Shown here one piece after another: positions 3,005-21,414 of a DNA stretch of 64,000 nt. The DNA is from a virus (lineage: Duplodnaviria; Caudoviricetes). Under the pieces are notes generated by a model. That model saw only the letters and a list, made by a program, of their open reading frames with translations, did not search any database and was not told the origin of the DNA. The stretch's first letter is position 1. Each line of letters opens with the position of its first letter. The stretch lies in the IMG/VR virus record IMGVR_UViG_3300043960_000133, positions 25,205 through 89,204 of that record; one strand, given 5' to 3'. A program made the translations under genes and the position numbers.

Positions 3005-4237
3005 ATGTTTGAAAAAATAAAAGCCTATATCCGCGGGTATCCCCCGGCAAAACAGTACCAGAACCTGGCACCGGTGGGATACGGCCGCGCGTTTAACATC
3101 AGCCCGAACGCGGATGTGATTTTTGCAACGTGCGTTAAAATCCTGGCACAAAACCTGGCCCAGTTCCGGTGGACGGTTTACCGTCCTGATTCCACCGCGG
3201 AACCTGCTGCCGTGCCGGGAAGTGCAAACGTCCTGAATTATCAGCCATATCCTGGAATTAATGCGTATACGTTTTGGGAATACATGGAAAAACAACGGCT
3301 TTTATATGGCAATGCGTTTGCGTATATCAACTGTGACCGTACAACGGCACTGGCCGCCCTGGTGCCCCTGGACGCCGGGAGTATGCAGGTAGTGTGGGAT
3401 GATGCCAATATCCTGGATGGGCAGAGAAAGCTGGTTTACCGGTATACCGACCCGCGGAACGGGGAAACGTATACCATCCTGCCGGAGGAAATATTACATT
3501 TCCGGGCATTTTCCACCAACGGAATTTTAGGCCGCCCGGCGGGCGTCGTATTGCGCGACACCCTAGCGGCGAACGCGGAAGTGGAGGGCGCCATTAGGAG
3601 CACGATTTCCAACGGTTTTTCCGGGACTATCGTCTTGACGTATACGTCCGACTTGAGCAAGACGAAACAGAAAGAGCTGCAAGCACAGATCAAGGAGCTG
3701 CTGTCCAACAGCAATGCCACCATTTTGCCGCTGCCTGCCGGAATGGAAGCAAGCAACATCACAAACGACGTGGGAAATTATTACCAGCTCGTTAAGGAAT
3801 CCAAAGCGGAAGACATTTCCGCCCTGTTTGGTATCCCGCTGGCCATGTTAAACCGGATGGGCGGCACCGGCACGGCAACGTTTTCCGCGTCTCAAATGAT
3901 GCAGTTCTTTTCCCAAACCATTGCCCCGATTTTAGAGCAATACGCCGCGGAATTATCCGTCAAGCTGCTGTCCGAACGGCAGCGGAACGCCGGGCTGAGG
4001 TTTGGAACCGTGAATGATGTTTTTGACACCCTGGATGCCCAAAGCAAGGCGTCCGTCTTGTGCAGCTACACCGGCGCCGGGATTTTGACGCCGAACGAAG
4101 CCCGGGCCAGTCTGAAATATCCGCGGTTGGACAGCCCGGAGGCTGATATGTTGACCCAACGGGGCGGCACTGGTGCCCTGGGGGACAGCCCGGGCGACGA
4201 ACAGGGTAATGAAGGAGGAGAAAATGGCAACGATTGA
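3005..4237 (+). CDS. Portal protein (HK97 family)
   Basis: LLYGNAFAYI, EEILHFR, ISALFGIP, LTPNEAR motifs. Confidence 0.9.
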   Translation: MFEKIKAYIRGYPPAKQYQNLAPVGYGRAFNISPNADVIFATCVKILAQNLAQFRWTVYRPDSTAEPAAVPGSANVLNYQPYPGINAYTFWEYMEKQRLLYGNAFAYINCDRTTALAALVPLDAGSMQVVWDDANILDGQRKLVYRYTDPRNGETYTILPEEILHFRAFSTNGILGRPAGVVLRDTLAANAEVEGAIRSTISNGFSGTIVLTYTSDLSKTKQKELQAQIKELLSNSNATILPLPAGMEASNITNDVGNYYQLVKESKAEDISALFGIPLAMLNRMGGTGTATFSASQMMQFFSQTIAPILEQYAAELSVKLLSERQRNAGLRFGTVNDVFDTLDAQSKASVLCSYTGAGILTPNEARASLKYPRLDSPEADMLTQRGGTGALGDSPGDEQGNEGGENGND

Positions 4238-7814: not shown

Positions 7815-10562
7815 ATGGCCGACGCAAAAATCAATCTTGAAACCTTTACAAACGACGAAGGGTTAAAGCGCTTGAACAGCGCCCTGGCTGAGGGCACCCA
7901 GGCCGCCGCCGCCATGCAAAAGGAACTGCGGGACCTGGAAAAGGCAACGCAATCCGGAACGAACGCCACTGCCGAACAGGCCAAGGCCATGCAGGATTTA
8001 CGGGAAAAACTGAACGCCCAAAAGCAGGTCAACGCGGAATACAACAAGGCCATTAAGGAAACCGTTAGCAGCCTGGGAAAGGTTGAAGAAAAACACAGTG
8101 CCCTGGGACAGCTGATGGACAACGTAGCCGGAAAACTGGGTGTGAACACCGCGGCGTTTACGTCCCTGGATGTTGCCGCCGGGGCATTTGCTGGTACCCT
8201 GGCCGTCAAGGTGGCCTCCGCCATTGCTCAATTTGTCCAGGACGTAGCCGCCATGGGGGCGGCGGCTGAAAAATCCGCGGCCATGTTTGCAGCCTGGAAA
8301 CCGGCGGCGGAAGACGCGGCGGAAGCCGGTAAACTGTTTAATGCCGTTGGACGCGATACCAATTACGACCTGTCCGCCGTTAAGCAGTGGGGCATGGACC
8401 TGGTTAACCTGGGGTACAGTGCAAACAACGCCGCCTACATGATTAAACTGTGTGCTGATACGGCTGCTGGGTTAGGCAAAGGGCAAGCAGGGGCGGAAAC
8501 ATTAATCCGAACCCTGGCCAGAATCCAGGCGACCGGGGAAGTGTCCAGCCGCCAGATGAAAGAATTGCAGCAGTCCGGGCTGGATATGGATAAAGCGTTT
8601 GAATCCGTGGGCATGACCGCCGAGGAAGCCATGCAGGCTATGGACGATGGCACACTGAACGCCCAGGACGCCGTGGCTAGCCTGACCGACTACATGCACA
8701 CGTTTGACGGGTCTATGGCTGAATCCAAGCAGAACATCATCGACGAATGGGGCGATGTCGAAGGAAACATGGTGACCATCTGTGCCAGCATTGGGGGCGC
8801 CATCTTTGAGGCGTTTGATAAATCCGGGATTGTGCAAACCCTGGTGGATTTTACCCAGGATTTACTGGACCTTGTGTGGAGTGATGGAACCAGCGCGTTT
8901 AGTGAATTTGGGAGCATTGCACAGTGGGCGTTGGATATCATCGATGACGGGCTGGAAGTTGTTCGGACGGCCGTAAAAGCTGTAATCATTATTTTTTACA
9001 AGTTAAATGACGCAGCCCGGAACATTGGGAGTGCCATTGCCGGATACCTGGCACCCATCCTCCGACCGCTGCAAGCAATCTGGGACAAGATTAAATCCAT
9101 CATTTCCACCCTGGGCGGTGCTGTCCAGGAATACGTAGGAACCGCATGGGATGAACTGGTGGGGCCACCGAAAGGCGTACCCCGTGAATACAACGAGGAC
9201 GACAACCATTTCCACACCGCTGTTCGCGCGCCGAAAACGTCCGGCGGCGGCGCGGCCGCCAGCACGCCCCACCAGAGCGCCCCGAAAATGAGCCAGGAAG
9301 AACGGGAGCTACAACGGCAAACGGAAGCGCTCATTAAAAAATACACGGACTGGACCGCCATCAGACAGGCGAACGAAAAGGCGGCCATCGAGGAAATGAA
9401 GGTCCGGGCAACGATGCTGACCGGCGAGGCTAAAGCAGACGCCGACCGGAAGGTCAAGCTGGCCGAGTACAAAAAGACCTATGACGATTTAATCGACAGC
9501 TACGAAAAGGAAATCAAGCTGGCTGAAAACATCCAGGACGACGGGACCCGGCAGGCCGTTGCGGACCGTATCAGCGAGCAGGAGCGGGACGCCAAAGAGC
9601 TTTACGAAGCTCAAATCGAAGCCTTGCAATATGCGGAGCGTCTGAAACAGCAGCAGGCAAATAGCAAGGAATTGATGGCCACGTTTGGTGCCGACCCCAA
9701 CAGCATTAAAGCTTATGTGGCCGCCATTAAAACGACCGTGACGGACGCAATGGCCGAAATCGACCAGGCAATGGCTACAGCGGGCGAAGATCAGGAAGCA
9801 GGCATTAACGGCCTGGCGAAGGTCCTGGGCATGAGTCCGGAAGCCATCAAGGACGAAATGGCCGCGAAAAACGAAACGTTGCAGGAATTTGTCGACAACT
9901 ACAAACAAAAACTAGTTGACGCCGGGGAAGCTGAAACCAACCAGGTTAAAAACACGAAAAACTGGAAGGACGCAATGGTGAGTTACTGGCAAGAGGCTGG
10001 CAAATCCATGGGCGAGGCTTTTAGCAGCATTTTGACCGGGACGAAATCCGCGGGTGCTGCCCTGGGTGATTTCGTCAAGACGATTTTCCAGAACGCGTTA
10101 AAAATTGCCACGGAATGGCTGGGCTTGTTCGCTATTTATTCCATCGTGGGCGACCCGAAACTGGCCGCCCGTTGGGCAGGACATACCCTGTTTGGTATGG
10201 ATTTCGGCGGTGTGACCAAGGGCAAGTTTGGTTTTGCGACCGGCGGCTACGTTGCCGGTCCTGGAACCGGAACAAGCGACTCCATTCCGGCAATGCTGAG
10301 CAACGGGGAATACGTCATTACGTCTCAAGCGGTTAACCGCGTTGGGCGGGATAACCTGGATGCAATCAACGCCGGGCGCGTGCCGGACCTGGGCACCGGC
10401 GGCGGCGTTACCGCAATTTCCGGCGGAAACGTTACGTTAAATGTGTCCGCGGTTGACGCGTCCGGATTCAGTGCATTTTTACAGCGCGGCGGCCTGGATG
10501 CAATCAAGCAGGCATTGTTTGATAACAATCGTAATTTTGCCGCAGATAGCGGGGTGTGGTAA
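7815..10562 (+). CDS. Tape measure protein
   Basis: 915 aa, Ala-rich and helical; C-terminal FATGGYVAGPGTGTSDSIPAMLSNGEYV typical of tape measure proteins. Confidence 0.92.
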   Translation: MADAKINLETFTNDEGLKRLNSALAEGTQAAAAMQKELRDLEKATQSGTNATAEQAKAMQDLREKLNAQKQVNAEYNKAIKETVSSLGKVEEKHSALGQLMDNVAGKLGVNTAAFTSLDVAAGAFAGTLAVKVASAIAQFVQDVAAMGAAAEKSAAMFAAWKPAAEDAAEAGKLFNAVGRDTNYDLSAVKQWGMDLVNLGYSANNAAYMIKLCADTAAGLGKGQAGAETLIRTLARIQATGEVSSRQMKELQQSGLDMDKAFESVGMTAEEAMQAMDDGTLNAQDAVASLTDYMHTFDGSMAESKQNIIDEWGDVEGNMVTICASIGGAIFEAFDKSGIVQTLVDFTQDLLDLVWSDGTSAFSEFGSIAQWALDIIDDGLEVVRTAVKAVIIIFYKLNDAARNIGSAIAGYLAPILRPLQAIWDKIKSIISTLGGAVQEYVGTAWDELVGPPKGVPREYNEDDNHFHTAVRAPKTSGGGAAASTPHQSAPKMSQEERELQRQTEALIKKYTDWTAIRQANEKAAIEEMKVRATMLTGEAKADADRKVKLAEYKKTYDDLIDSYEKEIKLAENIQDDGTRQAVADRISEQERDAKELYEAQIEALQYAERLKQQQANSKELMATFGADPNSIKAYVAAIKTTVTDAMAEIDQAMATAGEDQEAGINGLAKVLGMSPEAIKDEMAAKNETLQEFVDNYKQKLVDAGEAETNQVKNTKNWKDAMVSYWQEAGKSMGEAFSSILTGTKSAGAALGDFVKTIFQNALKIATEWLGLFAIYSIVGDPKLAARWAGHTLFGMDFGGVTKGKFGFATGGYVAGPGTGTSDSIPAMLSNGEYVITSQAVNRVGRDNLDAINAGRVPDLGTGGGVTAISGGNVTLNVSAVDASGFSAFLQRGGLDAIKQALFDNNRNFAADSGVW

Positions 10563-11131
10563 TGGCACTAAAAAAATTCCCCCAGGAAATTAAGCACCTG
10601 ACATGGAACAGCAAATTTAAACAAAAGTGGAATACACAGGTGCAAACGTCCGGATCCGGAATGGTCCGGACGTTGACCAATCAGCTGTATCCGCAATGGA
10701 CCATCACAGAAACGTTCGGTCTGCTGGACGACGATACCGCGAATAAGCTAATGGCATTTATTGCCAGCGTCAAGGGCGGGTACGAGCCGTTTTTGTGGCT
10801 GGACCACACGTTAAACCGGGAAACCGGGCGGGCGTTGCCAGTTATCGTGCCGGGAAAATACCAGGCGGTTTGGAGCCTGGATGGATACGTGGAACCGGCG
10901 GACTACATCGAGGATGTGACCGTCTACGTGGACGGCAAAAAGCAGACAAGCGGTTACAGCGTGTCCGGCGGCGTCATCAGCTTTTCCACGGCACCGGCAA
11001 CGGGGGCCGTGGTGACAGCTGATTATACGTACTGGTTTAAAGTGCGTTTTTCCGACGATGGGGGAGAGTTAACTAGAGTTTTCGAAAACGTTAACAATTC
11101 CAGTAGCTTTAAAATGGATGTGGTACGATGA
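10556..11131 (+). CDS. Distal tail protein, DUF2460/GTA-like
   Basis: KWNTQVQTSGSG, APATGAVVTADY, VRFSDD motifs. Confidence 0.75.
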   Translation: MVMALKKFPQEIKHLTWNSKFKQKWNTQVQTSGSGMVRTLTNQLYPQWTITETFGLLDDDTANKLMAFIASVKGGYEPFLWLDHTLNRETGRALPVIVPGKYQAVWSLDGYVEPADYIEDVTVYVDGKKQTSGYSVSGGVISFSTAPATGAVVTADYTYWFKVRFSDDGGELTRVFENVNNSSSFKMDVVR

Positions 11132-11709
11132 AACAAGTAGACGCCAGTCTGACGGCCTATTTAAACACACAAAAACAAATACAGAGTTGTGATTTATACG
11201 ATATTATCCTGGCTAATGGCAATCACTATTACTATACGGATGCCGATATTGACATCAACAACGGCGGGACGGTTTACCAGCACGGTAAACTGCTGTTTAA
11301 ACGGCAGCAGATTAAATTAAATTCCACCCTGACCGTTGACACCCTGAGCGTGACCATTTACGCCGGAAAAACCGATATGATCGAGAGCAAATCCGTGATG
11401 AAGGCCGCGCTAGACGGGACCATGGACCGGGCGCGTCTGCACCTTAAACGGTGCTTTTTCCGTGACGGTGCCGTCGTGGGCACCGTGGACCTGTTCGCGG
11501 GGAAAATCGAAATCAAAAACGCGGGCGGTTTGCAGCTGCAACTGTCCATCAAGGCGGAAACGAGCGGCCTGAACATGAATTTCCCCATCCGGAAATATTA
11601 CCCCCAAGGGAGCTTTTCCACCGGTTCCGGCGGCGTCGTCACGGCGTCAAGCACGGACAGTAGCGCGGTGATCGCGCCGTACATTCCGCGCAAGGAGGTG
11701 CTGCTATGA
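11128..11709 (+). CDS. Baseplate hub, DUF2163-like
   Basis: CDLYDIILANG-YYYTDAD motif; position between DUF2460-like and NlpC/P60 genes. Confidence 0.7.
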   Translation: MKQVDASLTAYLNTQKQIQSCDLYDIILANGNHYYYTDADIDINNGGTVYQHGKLLFKRQQIKLNSTLTVDTLSVTIYAGKTDMIESKSVMKAALDGTMDRARLHLKRCFFRDGAVVGTVDLFAGKIEIKNAGGLQLQLSIKAETSGLNMNFPIRKYYPQGSFSTGSGGVVTASSTDSSAVIAPYIPRKEVLL

Positions 11710-19361: not shown

Positions 19362-19390
19362 CGCCCGCATAAAGCGGGCGCTTTTTTATT
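19362..19390 (+). terminator. Intrinsic terminator ending late/lysis operon of phage 1
   Basis: CGCCCGC-ATAAA-GCGGGCG + CTTTTTTATT. Confidence 0.8.
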
Positions 19391-19541: not shown

Positions 19542-19608
19542 TATACGTATAAAATTTTAAAAAATATACGTATAAACTCTTGTAATTTATACGTATATGT
19601 GGTACTAT
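19542..19608 (+). promoter_or_regulatory. Sigma70-type promoter with three palindromic operators
   Basis: TTGTAA (19580-85), 17 bp, TACTAT (19603-08) with TGn extension; TATACGTATA at 19542, 19565 and 19588. Confidence 0.8.
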
Positions 19609-19689
19609 ATAGTCACAGGGAAGAAGAAAAGCCCTGAAGAACTTGAGAACGGCACCGGAAAACGGAAGCCGTCAAAGGAGGACAAAACC

Positions 19690-19935
19690 ATGAAGGAAAT
19701 CAAAGGATTGCAGGAAGCATGGGAAGAAATCAAAAGCTGCCCGAAGAGAAGAGATTGCTATTACGAAGTGTTTTTAAATCGGCAGACCGGAGAGGTTTCC
19801 GCCAACTTCCAGGTTTCCCTGGGGGCAAACAGCTGGGTCGAATACAAAAACAAAAACGTCGTCAAGGTTGGTGACTTTAACTGGCAGACAACTAAATCCG
19901 AATTTATCCACGCGATCGACATCGTTGAAAAGTAA
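19690..19935 (+). CDS. Small hypothetical protein (81 aa), first gene of accessory operon
   Basis: RBS AAGGAGG; AT-rich relative to the structural genes. Confidence 0.75.
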   Translation: MKEIKGLQEAWEEIKSCPKRRDCYYEVFLNRQTGEVSANFQVSLGANSWVEYKNKNVVKVGDFNWQTTKSEFIHAIDIVEK

Positions 19936-19938
19936 CAA

Positions 19939-19958
19939 GGTGGGGCGAAAGCCCCACC
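19939..19958 (+). promoter_or_regulatory. GNRA-tetraloop intergenic hairpin
   Basis: GGTGGGGC-GAAA-GCCCCACC, no U-tract (processing, stability or antitermination site?). Confidence 0.5.
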
Positions 19959-19981
19959 ACCATTTGAAAGGAGAGCAAGCC

Positions 19982-20482
19982 ATGGAAGTGAAAGACCTTA
20001 TCAAAAAGTACAACCTGCAAGCTGTCGAGAAAGACGGAAAAATGATGGTGCACACTAGGGCAAGGGTCCCGGCAAAAGACGTTGCAGCCATCAAAGAACA
20101 CCGGGATGAAATCCTGAAAGAAATCCTGGATGCCAAAGAACAGGCAAGAAAGGCCTACGAAGAACGCCAGGCAAAGATTAACGCCATCCCTGGCCTGTCC
20201 GAAATTAAGGCTGAACTGGAAAAAGCTGCCGACTGGCGTAGACGGTTTAATGCCAGTTTTGAAACTGAGGACGGTGGCGGATGGGGTGTGGGGCCTAGAC
20301 CTAACTATGATTTTGACGCAGCCTATAAAAAATACCCACAAGCCCACGCTTATCTGATCGCCGAACAGGAAGCCTATAAAGACAACTATGAACTGGCTGA
20401 AATTGGGCGGAAGGCGCTGGAAAAGGTCATCAACGGCCAACGGGAAGAAGCCGAATTTTGTGAAAAGCACATGTGGGACTAA
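19982..20482 (+). CDS. Hypothetical helical protein (166 aa)
   Basis: RBS AAAGGAG; open frame with plausible composition. Confidence 0.75.
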   Translation: MEVKDLIKKYNLQAVEKDGKMMVHTRARVPAKDVAAIKEHRDEILKEILDAKEQARKAYEERQAKINAIPGLSEIKAELEKAADWRRRFNASFETEDGGGWGVGPRPNYDFDAAYKKYPQAHAYLIAEQEAYKDNYELAEIGRKALEKVINGQREEAEFCEKHMWD

Positions 20483-20498
20483 ATGGGGGGTATAAACC

Positions 20499-20858
20499 AT
20501 GAGTATCGACAAGAAATACGTTTTAGAAATGAAAAAGCTCGCAAGAGCGGAAAAATACAAAGATTTTTACAAATATTGCACAATGAGCGCCGGCGGCAGC
20601 GACATCGCCTCCCTCAGCTACCGGACCAGCGATCCTAAGGAAATCGGAGAAATCGCATTCGGCGAAGATGGCGATTACAAAGCCCATCTGATCGCCGGAG
20701 ACACCGAGGTCCCCAGCCATTACAACCTGGTCTTTGATACGGAATCATCATGGTTGTGGGTTTACGATGACGATGGAAAGATTCTTGATCTGACTAATGA
20801 TGCGGGGTTCCAGATTTATCGGGCGGGGGAAATGGGCCTGCTGATCAGATTCAAATAA
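20499..20858 (+). CDS. Acidic hypothetical protein (119 aa)
   Basis: RBS GGGGGG; D/E-rich; GSDIASL and FGEDGDYKA motifs. Confidence 0.75.
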   Translation: MSIDKKYVLEMKKLARAEKYKDFYKYCTMSAGGSDIASLSYRTSDPKEIGEIAFGEDGDYKAHLIAGDTEVPSHYNLVFDTESSWLWVYDDDGKILDLTNDAGFQIYRAGEMGLLIRFK

Positions 20859-20872
20859 AGGAGCTTAAAATC

Positions 20873-21208
20873 ATGAAAAAAACCATATACGTGAATGACC
20901 CATTAATCAAGCTGAACGAACAAACCACCAACGGCGGGTTTTCCCGCCGCCTGGGGGAAATCGTGGAGCGGTACGACATAATCATGAAATTAACGCCGGA
21001 GCCGCCAAAATTTTCCCCGGAAGAAATGCACGTTTTGGCCGAAGTCCTTGCTGGTGCAAAGATTTCAGCGGGCTTTATTTACTCCCTGGGGTTTGAGGTC
21101 CAGGACAGCGTCCTGGAAACGCCGGAAATCCGGGAAGCTCTTGCAAAAAAAATCGACGGCATGACAGCCGCGGAAAAAATAAAAATGATCGAGGTGTTTC
21201 TCAAATAA
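20873..21208 (+). CDS. Putative ribbon-helix-helix DNA-binding protein
   Basis: N-terminal alternating strand KKTIYV followed by helix-turn-helix-like ...GGFSRRLGEIVERY; last gene of the operon. Confidence 0.5.
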   Translation: MKKTIYVNDPLIKLNEQTTNGGFSRRLGEIVERYDIIMKLTPEPPKFSPEEMHVLAEVLAGAKISAGFIYSLGFEVQDSVLETPEIREALAKKIDGMTAAEKIKMIEVFLK

Positions 21209-21212
21209 AGCC

Positions 21213-21238
21213 AGCCGCCGGGTTGTCCGGCGGCTTTA
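21213..21238 (+). terminator. Probable terminator after accessory operon
   Basis: AGCCGCCGG-GTTGT-CCGGCGGCT + TTA; short U-tract. Confidence 0.55.
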
Positions 21239-21414
21239 TACATTGTTATGCATTTTGGCAAATTGGGCTGGGATTGGGCAAAAATCCCGCAAAAAGTCCA
21301 CACGAGCCAGACGTTTTCGAGAGACGAAACGACGGAAAACGGCGTATTTCCTAGCGTTCCGACGTTTTTCGTATTATCCCGATAGGACGTTCCGGCATGC
21401 CGGAGATGATGTAA

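Follow-up and report, generated by a model that had tools for sequence, protein, structure and literature searches.

A probable AcrIE10-like regulator gene, promoter palindromes in a 23-bp register and exchangeable small genes at the attR end of a prophage

What controls a four-gene cassette that stands behind three identical palindromes at one end of a prophage, and what might its genes be for? We consider this question for positions 19542–21238 of a 64,000-nucleotide stretch of phage DNA (‘the window’, whose coordinates are used unless stated otherwise), which comprises bases 25205–89204 of an IMG/VR provirus record of 89,204 bp (IMGVR_UViG_3300043960_000133). An earlier note, made from the letters of the window, had taken the last gene (open reading frame 4, ORF4) to be a ribbon-helix-helix (RHH) autorepressor acting through the palindromes, and ORF1 to ORF3 to be anti-defence or host-takeover proteins expressed as soon as the DNA has entered, in the manner of anti-CRISPR (Acr) operons and their anti-CRISPR-associated (Aca) regulators. 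Our answer, to which we give a probability of about 0.55 as a whole, is that the cassette is an attR-proximal moron, autorepressed by ORF4 and carrying counter-defence cargo.

Operators, promoter and leader of the ORF4 gene family

Homologues of ORF4 were gathered from IMG/VR, GTDB genomes and metagenome contigs. They show 38–91% identity and fall into 36 distinct loci, in phages of Acidaminococcus, Megasphaera, Selenomonas and Pectinatus; individual loci are cited by L-numbers where they have to be told apart. The parts of the cassette in the window are the following.

19542..19551, unstranded: operator 1 (distal), TATACGTATA, found in the Acidaminococcus clade only
19565..19574, unstranded: operator 2, TATACGTATA, ending 5 bp before the -35 box, its position kept in 30 of the 36 loci
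19580..19608, + strand: promoter TTGTAA-17 bp-TACTAT, hexamers at 19580-19585 and 19603-19608, TG at 19600-19601
19588..19597, unstranded: operator 3, TATACGTATA, within the promoter spacer
19614..19689, + strand: conserved structured leader, from an alignment of 18 leaders with compensatory pairs; hairpin 1 at 19616-19636, CTTGAG box at 19642-19647, two-tier hairpin 2 at 19649-19672, Shine-Dalgarno sequence at 19676-19681
19690..19935, + strand: ORF1, 81 amino acids (aa); helix, three strands, helix; the most recurrent cargo family
19982..20482, + strand: ORF2, 166 aa, helical; relatives in L013 and in two phage contigs of 131 and 145 kb
20499..20858, + strand: ORF3, 119 aa, acidic (isoelectric point 4.8); homologue in L063
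20873..21208, + strand: ORF4, 111 aa, AcrIE10-like, the proposed autorepressor; starts MKKTIYVN, with an RHH-type N-terminus and a C-terminal helical domain

The palindrome TATACGTATA is perfect over its 10 bp and occurs three times, with a start-to-start distance of 23 bp, across a sigma-70-type promoter. These three are the only exact copies in the whole record. When one mismatch is allowed, the window holds eight matches where 0.72 are expected, a count reached by none of 100 shuffles. The coordinates confirm what the earlier note had said of the array, namely three perfect palindromes at 23-bp intervals with the third in the spacer, and the ORF coordinates bear out its four genes (81, 166 and 119 aa, then one with a KKTIYV N-terminus). 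Its ‘near-consensus extended -10 promoter’ was right as to the position, the TG and the 17-bp spacer and generous as to the hexamers, TTGTAA and TACTAT, each of which matches the consensus at four of six bases; a promoter scan of the window did not have this pair among its listed promoters. Relatives carry TTGACA-17-TATAAT with a TGn at the homologous place, and the position of the promoter is therefore fixed. Inverted-repeat operators overlap the promoter here, as they do in Acr-Aca operons.

Operators and regulator gene occur together. In 30 of the 36 distinct ORF4 loci, the 2 kb upstream of the gene contain two or more TATACGTATA-like sites at a distance of exactly 23 bp, and in these 30 one site abuts the -35 box and another lies inside the spacer. 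Site-to-site distances of 23 bp (37 pairs) and 46 bp (7 pairs) dominate, any other distance being represented at most once, and no 23-bp site pair was found elsewhere in 165 kb of the same loci. The reverse search, with the exact string TATACGTATA-N13-TATACGTATA, returned 11 IMG/VR loci only, six of them beside an ORF4 homologue.

Some homologues have a different N-terminal strand, RK(H/N)I(W/Y)MN and not K(K/R)TIYM, and these have AAGTGT-type repeats at the promoter. They are found in Paenibacillus BN12 and Heath and in a Megasphaera prophage (L029/L041); the repeats are spaced by 22–23 bp in Megasphaera L029/L041 and stand close together in Paenibacillus L001/L003. Covariation between strand residues and operator class is what would be expected if the strand reads the operator, and it is suggestive, in two lineages only, of H or N in place of T setting operator specificity. 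In the Streptococcus phage Javan178 (L002, 2600–2715), the ORF4 homologue is followed by a second consensus promoter with two 16-bp palindromes of the TACAAATAnTTTTGTA type. Its leader begins with the same ATAATCAAG, and the gene that it drives is A118 gp30-like; the regulator may control this operon as well.

The leader, of ~80 nt, lies 3' of the -10 box in every locus (18 leaders aligned; the counterpart in L001 is at 3590–3665) and is common to phages of Acidaminococcus, Megasphaera, Pectinatus and Paenibacillus. Both hairpins recur in single-sequence folds of most of the 18 leaders. Hairpin 1 begins 2–3 bases past the predicted 5' end, and its stem shows compensation between clades, with CAGGG/CCCTG in one and GGAAGG/CCTTCC in another. 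Hairpin 2 contains the conserved elements CACC and GGAAG and pairs the CTT of the CTTGAG box with part of the Shine-Dalgarno sequence. A 5'-terminal hairpin that stabilises the mRNA and a partly masked ribosome-binding site would be the plain readings of this leader. An Rfam search with promoter and leader returned chance-level matches only and no family. A recent preprint describes structured motifs in the 5' untranslated regions of Aca1 and Aca2 operons, the Aca2 RNA motif being bound by Aca itself (bioRxiv 10.64898/2026.07.27.740549). Those operons share with ours a conserved structured leader between an operator-bearing promoter and the first cargo gene. The hairpins of our leader do not resemble the DNA operator, and we therefore do not claim that ORF4 binds the leader RNA.

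ORF4 and the known systems it resembles

ORF4 has a full-length hidden Markov model match to phrog_14350, a family without annotated function (E 2.9e-18, residues 2–108 on profile positions 9–115 of 118), and the Pfam search of ORF4 gave no family. A profile built from 30 family members and searched against the PDB finds 9m7t, 9uer, 9m71 and 8ji9 (AcrIE10) with an E-value of 1.4e-6, aligning profile positions 19–113 with residues 22–114 of a chain of 116. In a profile-profile comparison with hhalign, the ORF4 family and AcrIE10 of a Klebsiella plasmid align over 89 columns with 28% identity (Prob 96.2, E 2e-9). The similarity extends over RHH helix 2 and the C-terminal helical domain.

Structure prediction of 20873..21208 had been proposed in the earlier note as a check. 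The AlphaFold2 (AF2) model has a predicted local distance difference test score (pLDDT) of 65, and its three best fold matches in Foldseek are AcrIE10 chains, in the apo, DNA-bound and Cas7-bound forms (probability 0.97–0.85, TM score 0.55). VIA-align likewise puts AcrIE10 at the top, with a Z-score of 7.2–7.5 over 76–86 residues, which is below 8; the next chain scores 3.6. At the residue level, the first eleven residues of the two proteins are alike (MKKEISRNPSF in AcrIE10, MKKTIYVNDPL in ORF4). The phosphate-contacting V28/T29 of AcrIE10 align with F23/S24, which are invariant in the ORF4 family, and its Cas7-contacting E78 aligns with E75 of ORF4, a position that is E or D throughout the family; the adjacent D78 is invariant.

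Work of 2026 established that AcrIE10 acts both as an Acr and as an Aca: its N-terminal RHH binds an inverted repeat over the -35/-10 region of acrIE9.2-acrIE10 and represses that promoter ~80-fold, and its C-terminal domain binds Cas7, for which E78 is required, dimer-dimer contacts using the same surface (PMC13530269). Our comparison draws on PDB entries 9m71, 9m7t and 8ji9 and on PMC13530269 and PMC11317147. In the AcrIE10 operon of Klebsiella pneumoniae plasmids, as in the window, the regulator comes last in a short operon and joins, in ORF4 by prediction, an N-terminal RHH-type part to a five-helix domain, and the operators overlap the -35/-10 region of a promoter that drives small upstream genes. 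The two systems differ in that the regulators are only 28% identical and that ours is in a phage of Negativicutes rather than on a plasmid of Enterobacteriaceae; here the cargo varies, in contrast to the fixed acrIE9.2 partner, and there is a conserved structured leader.

On these comparisons, the assignment of ORF4 as a distant homologue of AcrIE10 is well supported. A small regulator of predicted DNA-binding type is co-encoded in the operon and accompanied by diverse cargo across elements, as in Acr-Aca systems. ORF4 is probably an autorepressor acting on the TATACGTATA sites, and this regulator reading is well supported because it joins homology to an RHH Aca of demonstrated activity with the co-occurrence of operator and gene. 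The earlier claim of an RHH autorepressor accordingly stands as far as the AcrIE10 homology and the palindromes accompanying the gene family in 30 of 36 loci reach; binding is the part that we infer from sequence.

Two other systems deserve comparison. Aca14 of Pasteurella multocida, judged by its description only, is also an RHH protein at the end of anti-defence operons, which binds an AT-rich inverted repeat at the promoter and goes with many different cargo genes; it differs in its long helical extension, in a single inverted repeat that covers the -10 box and in having no identified conserved RNA motif (bioRxiv 10.64898/2026.07.27.740549). The cassette occupies the site where Listeria and Streptococcus prophages hold accessory genes. 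In the acrIIA loci of Listeria prophages, the space from the lysis genes to the end of the prophage is taken up by a short anti-CRISPR operon of variable content, with AcrIIA1 as its co-encoded, bifunctional helix-turn-helix (HTH) autorepressor. There the regulator is HTH and here RHH, without sequence relationship, and the cargo here is only putatively anti-CRISPR.

Prophage setting, cargo genes and host

The record contains more than one phage. Replication genes of one phage precede the window and are followed by an integrase and a CI-like repressor gene on the opposite strand; beyond these, a second phage begins to show its early, packaging, tail and lysis genes. The following features define the setting of the cassette.

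Record 9161-11660, opposite strand: integrase and CI-like genes of the inner phage
19362..19390, + strand: intrinsic terminator at the end of the lysis module, a stem with seven GC pairs (19362-19380) and an CTTTTTTATT tail
21213..21235, unstranded: GC-rich hairpin at the cassette end, nine pairs of which eight are GC, resembling a two-way terminator
21260..21280, unstranded: attR core of the inner prophage, AAATTGGGCTGGGATTGGGCA (blastn-short 19/20, E 5e-4), with its partner at record 8611-8645 near the integrase

A direct repeat of 20 bp, AAATTGGGCTGG(A/G)ATTGGGC, is present at record 8611 and window 21260 and flanks the inner prophage. Because of this repeat we take the inner prophage to be nested in an outer phage; the layout fits an insertion between the outer replication genes and an HNH/ParB-methylase/terminase block. 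The cassette is the final element of the inner prophage, after the lysis module and ~25 bp from attR.

The cassette is a moron, i.e. an autonomous accessory unit: it has its own promoter, terminators on either side, a deviating base composition (46% GC, compared with 53% for the phage) and a place outside the core modules. The upstream terminator is predicted to shield it from late transcription. The closing terminator claimed in the earlier note is present as a hairpin of nine pairs at 21213-21235, with a poor T-run on the + strand (TTATACAT), and the terminator scan listed this hairpin on the - strand only. The position is borne out by relatives: sister cassettes adjoin host ahpC/greA/lysS genes in L007 and L039 and an attP-integrase region in L010–L012. 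In the sister prophage L014 (3880–4001), a deletion has fused the lysis terminator with what is left of the ORF2 homologue at its end, so that the promoter, the operators, ORF1 and most of ORF2 are gone and ORF4 is kept. A blastn search of the cassette against 50,697 phage records gave no match. Promoter-hairpin repeats of the outer phage (window 23368 and 26353) were considered as the same platform and rejected, as they are without palindromes and have another leader.

Between the platform and ORF4, one to three cargo genes are found in each locus, drawn from at least 12 unrelated small families across loci, and many of their products are very acidic (net charge -11 to -23 in 53–163 residues). 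The ORF1 family is the one that recurs most, with 262 cluster representatives at E<=1e-3. Besides prophages of Acidaminococcus and Selenomonas, its pairing with ORF4 is seen in unassigned viral contigs from the clade to which Megasphaera prophages belong. Its AF2 model is confident (pLDDT 90), and against BFVD it matched uncharacterised viral proteins only. PDB sequence searches with ORF1, ORF2, ORF3 and the ORF1 family profile gave no credible match, none of the three resembles any known Acr in Pfam, PHROGs or the PDB, and the ESM Atlas gave nothing usable for ORF2 and ORF3. When Pfam and PHROGs were run on 20 cargo and neighbour proteins of relatives, the only matches were to zinc-ribbon and ‘HNH endonuclease’ families, for downstream partners. 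A precomputed AcrIF11_ADP_ribosyl Pfam label on a neighbour gene in L048 was not reproduced with a local Pfam search and was not relied on.

The commonest cargo of the Megasphaera clade (L028, 3591–3944, and seven other loci) is a 118-aa protein with a net charge of -23 and a weak match to the N-terminal domain of ParB, including a GSHR motif.

In L050 and L063, unrelated small HTH genes stand immediately behind ORF1-like and ORF3-like genes; in L063, an XRE-type HTH gene that overlaps the ORF3 homologue takes the place of ORF4. The same cargo with different small regulators is a pattern used in the discovery of anti-CRISPRs by association.

The nearest homologues of ORF4 come from Acidaminococcus massiliensis and from Acidaminococcus sp. 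LBK-2, whose ORF4 is 90% identical. The former has a Cas12a gene and three cas1 loci, and the latter type I-E Cas7 and Cas9. Spacer 17 of the type II array of LBK-2 (L075) matches the integrase of the inner phage at 30 of 30 bases (record 9442-9471), other spacers of host arrays match the inner phage at 31/32 and 31/33, and near-perfect spacers of I-E and I-F-like type target structural genes. Spacer 30 of the type I-E array of LBK-2 (L073) targets the ORF1-like cargo of sister cassettes (L013 1334–1364 and L007 4039–4071) with one to three mismatches. These spacer matches establish Acidaminococcus as the host genus and show a phage family under CRISPR attack.

An anti-defence role for ORF1 to ORF3 therefore has circumstantial support, from a variable and acidic cargo, from the swapping of small regulators and from the targeting of the phage by CRISPR in its host genus. 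Of the earlier proposal that these genes are anti-defence or host-takeover proteins, it is this context that holds, and no match to a family, a structure or a defence system came to its aid. We would put the chance that at least one of the four proteins inhibits a defence system at slightly less than even.

How the cassette may work, and what else it could be

In the model that we favour, in which we infer DNA binding, repression, timing and cargo function, the sigma-70-type promoter would drive the structured leader and four genes with ORF4 last. ORF4 dimers would bind the three TATACGTATA palindromes, one in the spacer, one next to the -35 box and one 23 bp further upstream, and block RNA polymerase. 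The operon would be expressed in a burst on phage entry or upon titration of ORF4 and then shut itself down, as in Acr-Aca operons. ORF1 to ORF3 would be the cargo, most likely for counter-defence, with CRISPR-Cas as the obvious candidate target.

Several observations weigh against this reading. Six of the 36 loci retain ORF4 without operators, L014 through its deletion. The cargo is silent in comparisons: the confident ORF1 model has no known fold relative (best E 0.58 with Foldseek against the PDB, best Z 4.8 among 48,161 chains with VIA-align), and ORF1 to ORF3 gave nothing above noise against Pfam, PHROGs, PADLOC and NCBIfam. For ORF4, AF2 gives a model of mediocre quality (pLDDT 65), with residues 1–8 unstructured and the N-terminal strand unseen, a strand that a monomer is not expected to show. 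The operators also differ from those of AcrIE10, with two or three 10-bp palindromes 23 bp apart here and a single 20-bp inverted repeat with a critical 2-bp spacer there. A perfect self-targeting spacer in a lysogen is the classical indicator of an Acr. No such spacer was found in the two lysogens checked, whose own spacers match their own prophage with two to four mismatches. Finally, in other clades ORF4 has a zinc-finger partner, which may point to a function of the family beyond autorepression and leaves the Aca reading with its most conspicuous loose end.

It is possible, and clearly the less probable view, that the same ORF4 circuit controls cargo of another kind, such as genes for lysogenic conversion, superinfection exclusion, host takeover or defence, whose expression in the lysogen would be low and constant. 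Morons and conversion genes classically stand beside attR, under a promoter of their own and between terminators, as this cassette does, ORF4 homologues of Paenibacillus and Streptococcus prophages also lie within the lysis-to-integrase region, and ORF1 to ORF3 have no link to any Acr family. PADLOC found no defence match for these genes, however, and their products are small and acidic and, by reading of the sequences, have no membrane segment, unlike the usual membrane-bound exclusion proteins. Cargo is exchanged quickly between near-identical platforms, the regulator is homologous to an Aca, and in other phages the same platform stands directly before the terminase genes and not in the lysogeny region. 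An idea compatible with the favoured model, and one that we consider unlikely, makes ORF4 itself the effector: like AcrIE10, it would be bifunctional, its C-terminal domain binding a host defence protein (e.g. Cas7) and so lifting repression, with ORF1 to ORF3 secondary. The homology does span the whole ‘Acr domain’ of AcrIE10, the equivalent of E78 (E75) is acidic family-wide with D78 invariant, and LBK-2, with its 90% identical ORF4, has type I-E Cas7. Yet the identity is only 28%, type I-E Cas7 is present in one of five hosts checked, the family reaches into Paenibacillus and Streptococcus phages, and the conserved acidic residues could equally serve dimer-dimer contacts.

That the palindromes have no regulatory role, or that they serve another factor (the CI of the phage, a regulator of the host or a restriction-type enzyme), seems improbable. 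TATACGTATA contains restriction-like palindromic cores, but the CI/Cro region of the inner phage is without such a site and the record has no further copy. The sites accompany ORF4 across unrelated phages, in an exact 23-bp register on the -35 box and the spacer; the LBK-2 prophage shares only 155 aligned bases with the present one and yet has the cassette. More improbable still is a module of the toxin-antitoxin kind, with ORF4 as RHH antitoxin and ORF3, or the zinc-finger protein of other clades, as toxin. RHH antitoxins do autoregulate through promoter palindromes, and in many relatives ORF4 is translationally coupled to the gene downstream. Against this, Pfam, NCBIfam and PADLOC gave no toxin family for ORF1 to ORF3 or the downstream partners and no adjacent toxin was found; the neighbours of ORF4 are variable and acidic, and the downstream partners, absent from the window, are basic DNA-binding proteins of zinc-ribbon/AP2 type.

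RHH-type Acas were first reported in 2026, with AcrIE10 on Klebsiella plasmids (PMC13530269) and Aca14 in Pasteurella (bioRxiv 10.64898/2026.07.27.740549). What is new here is a phage-borne distant relative of AcrIE10 in Negativicutes, with a fixed 23-bp palindrome register, a structured leader, exchangeable cargo and, in some clades, a zinc-finger partner. Temperate phages of gut Negativicutes are thereby shown to carry a distant relative of AcrIE10, and the pairing of gene and operator provides a search key that already gathers about a dozen unannotated families of small, mostly acidic proteins. Acidaminococcus is the source genus of AsCas12a, a nuclease widely used in genome editing. Since this genus is among the hosts and carries spacers against the phage family, it is reasonable to consider the cargo proteins as candidate native inhibitors of Cas12a, type I-E or type II systems. 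Should the cargo be of another kind, the platform would still be a mobile, self-limiting expression unit. More speculatively, the ~170-bp unit of 23-bp operator pair, consensus promoter and two-hairpin leader, together with the AcrIE10-like gene, could be a portable expression platform of Negativicutes phages, with other operators in Paenibacillus and Streptococcus phages. It might then mark a dozen or more unknown anti-defence families, possibly including inhibitors of Acidaminococcus Cas12a, type I-E and Cas9, and the C-terminal domain might respond to a host defence protein by releasing repression, in the way that AcrIE10 responds to Cas7.

The partner seen in the Megasphaera, Selenomonas, Pectinatus and Paenibacillus clades is a basic zinc-ribbon protein, translationally coupled downstream of ORF4; in the Acidaminococcus clade, the window included, ORF4 stands without it. 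Matches of the partners to phage ‘HNH endonuclease’ PHROGs are confined to the DNA-binding parts, and some partners have an AP2-like domain, read by eye and without a family match. Examples are listed below.

L028, 4351-4845: zinc-ribbon partner gene
L024, 4357-4905: zinc-ribbon partner gene
L008, 5327-6190: zinc-ribbon partner gene
L001, 4349-4780: zinc-ribbon partner gene

In Paenibacillus phages, the partner is annotated as a ‘TnpX recombinase’, yet it has DNA-binding repeats only.

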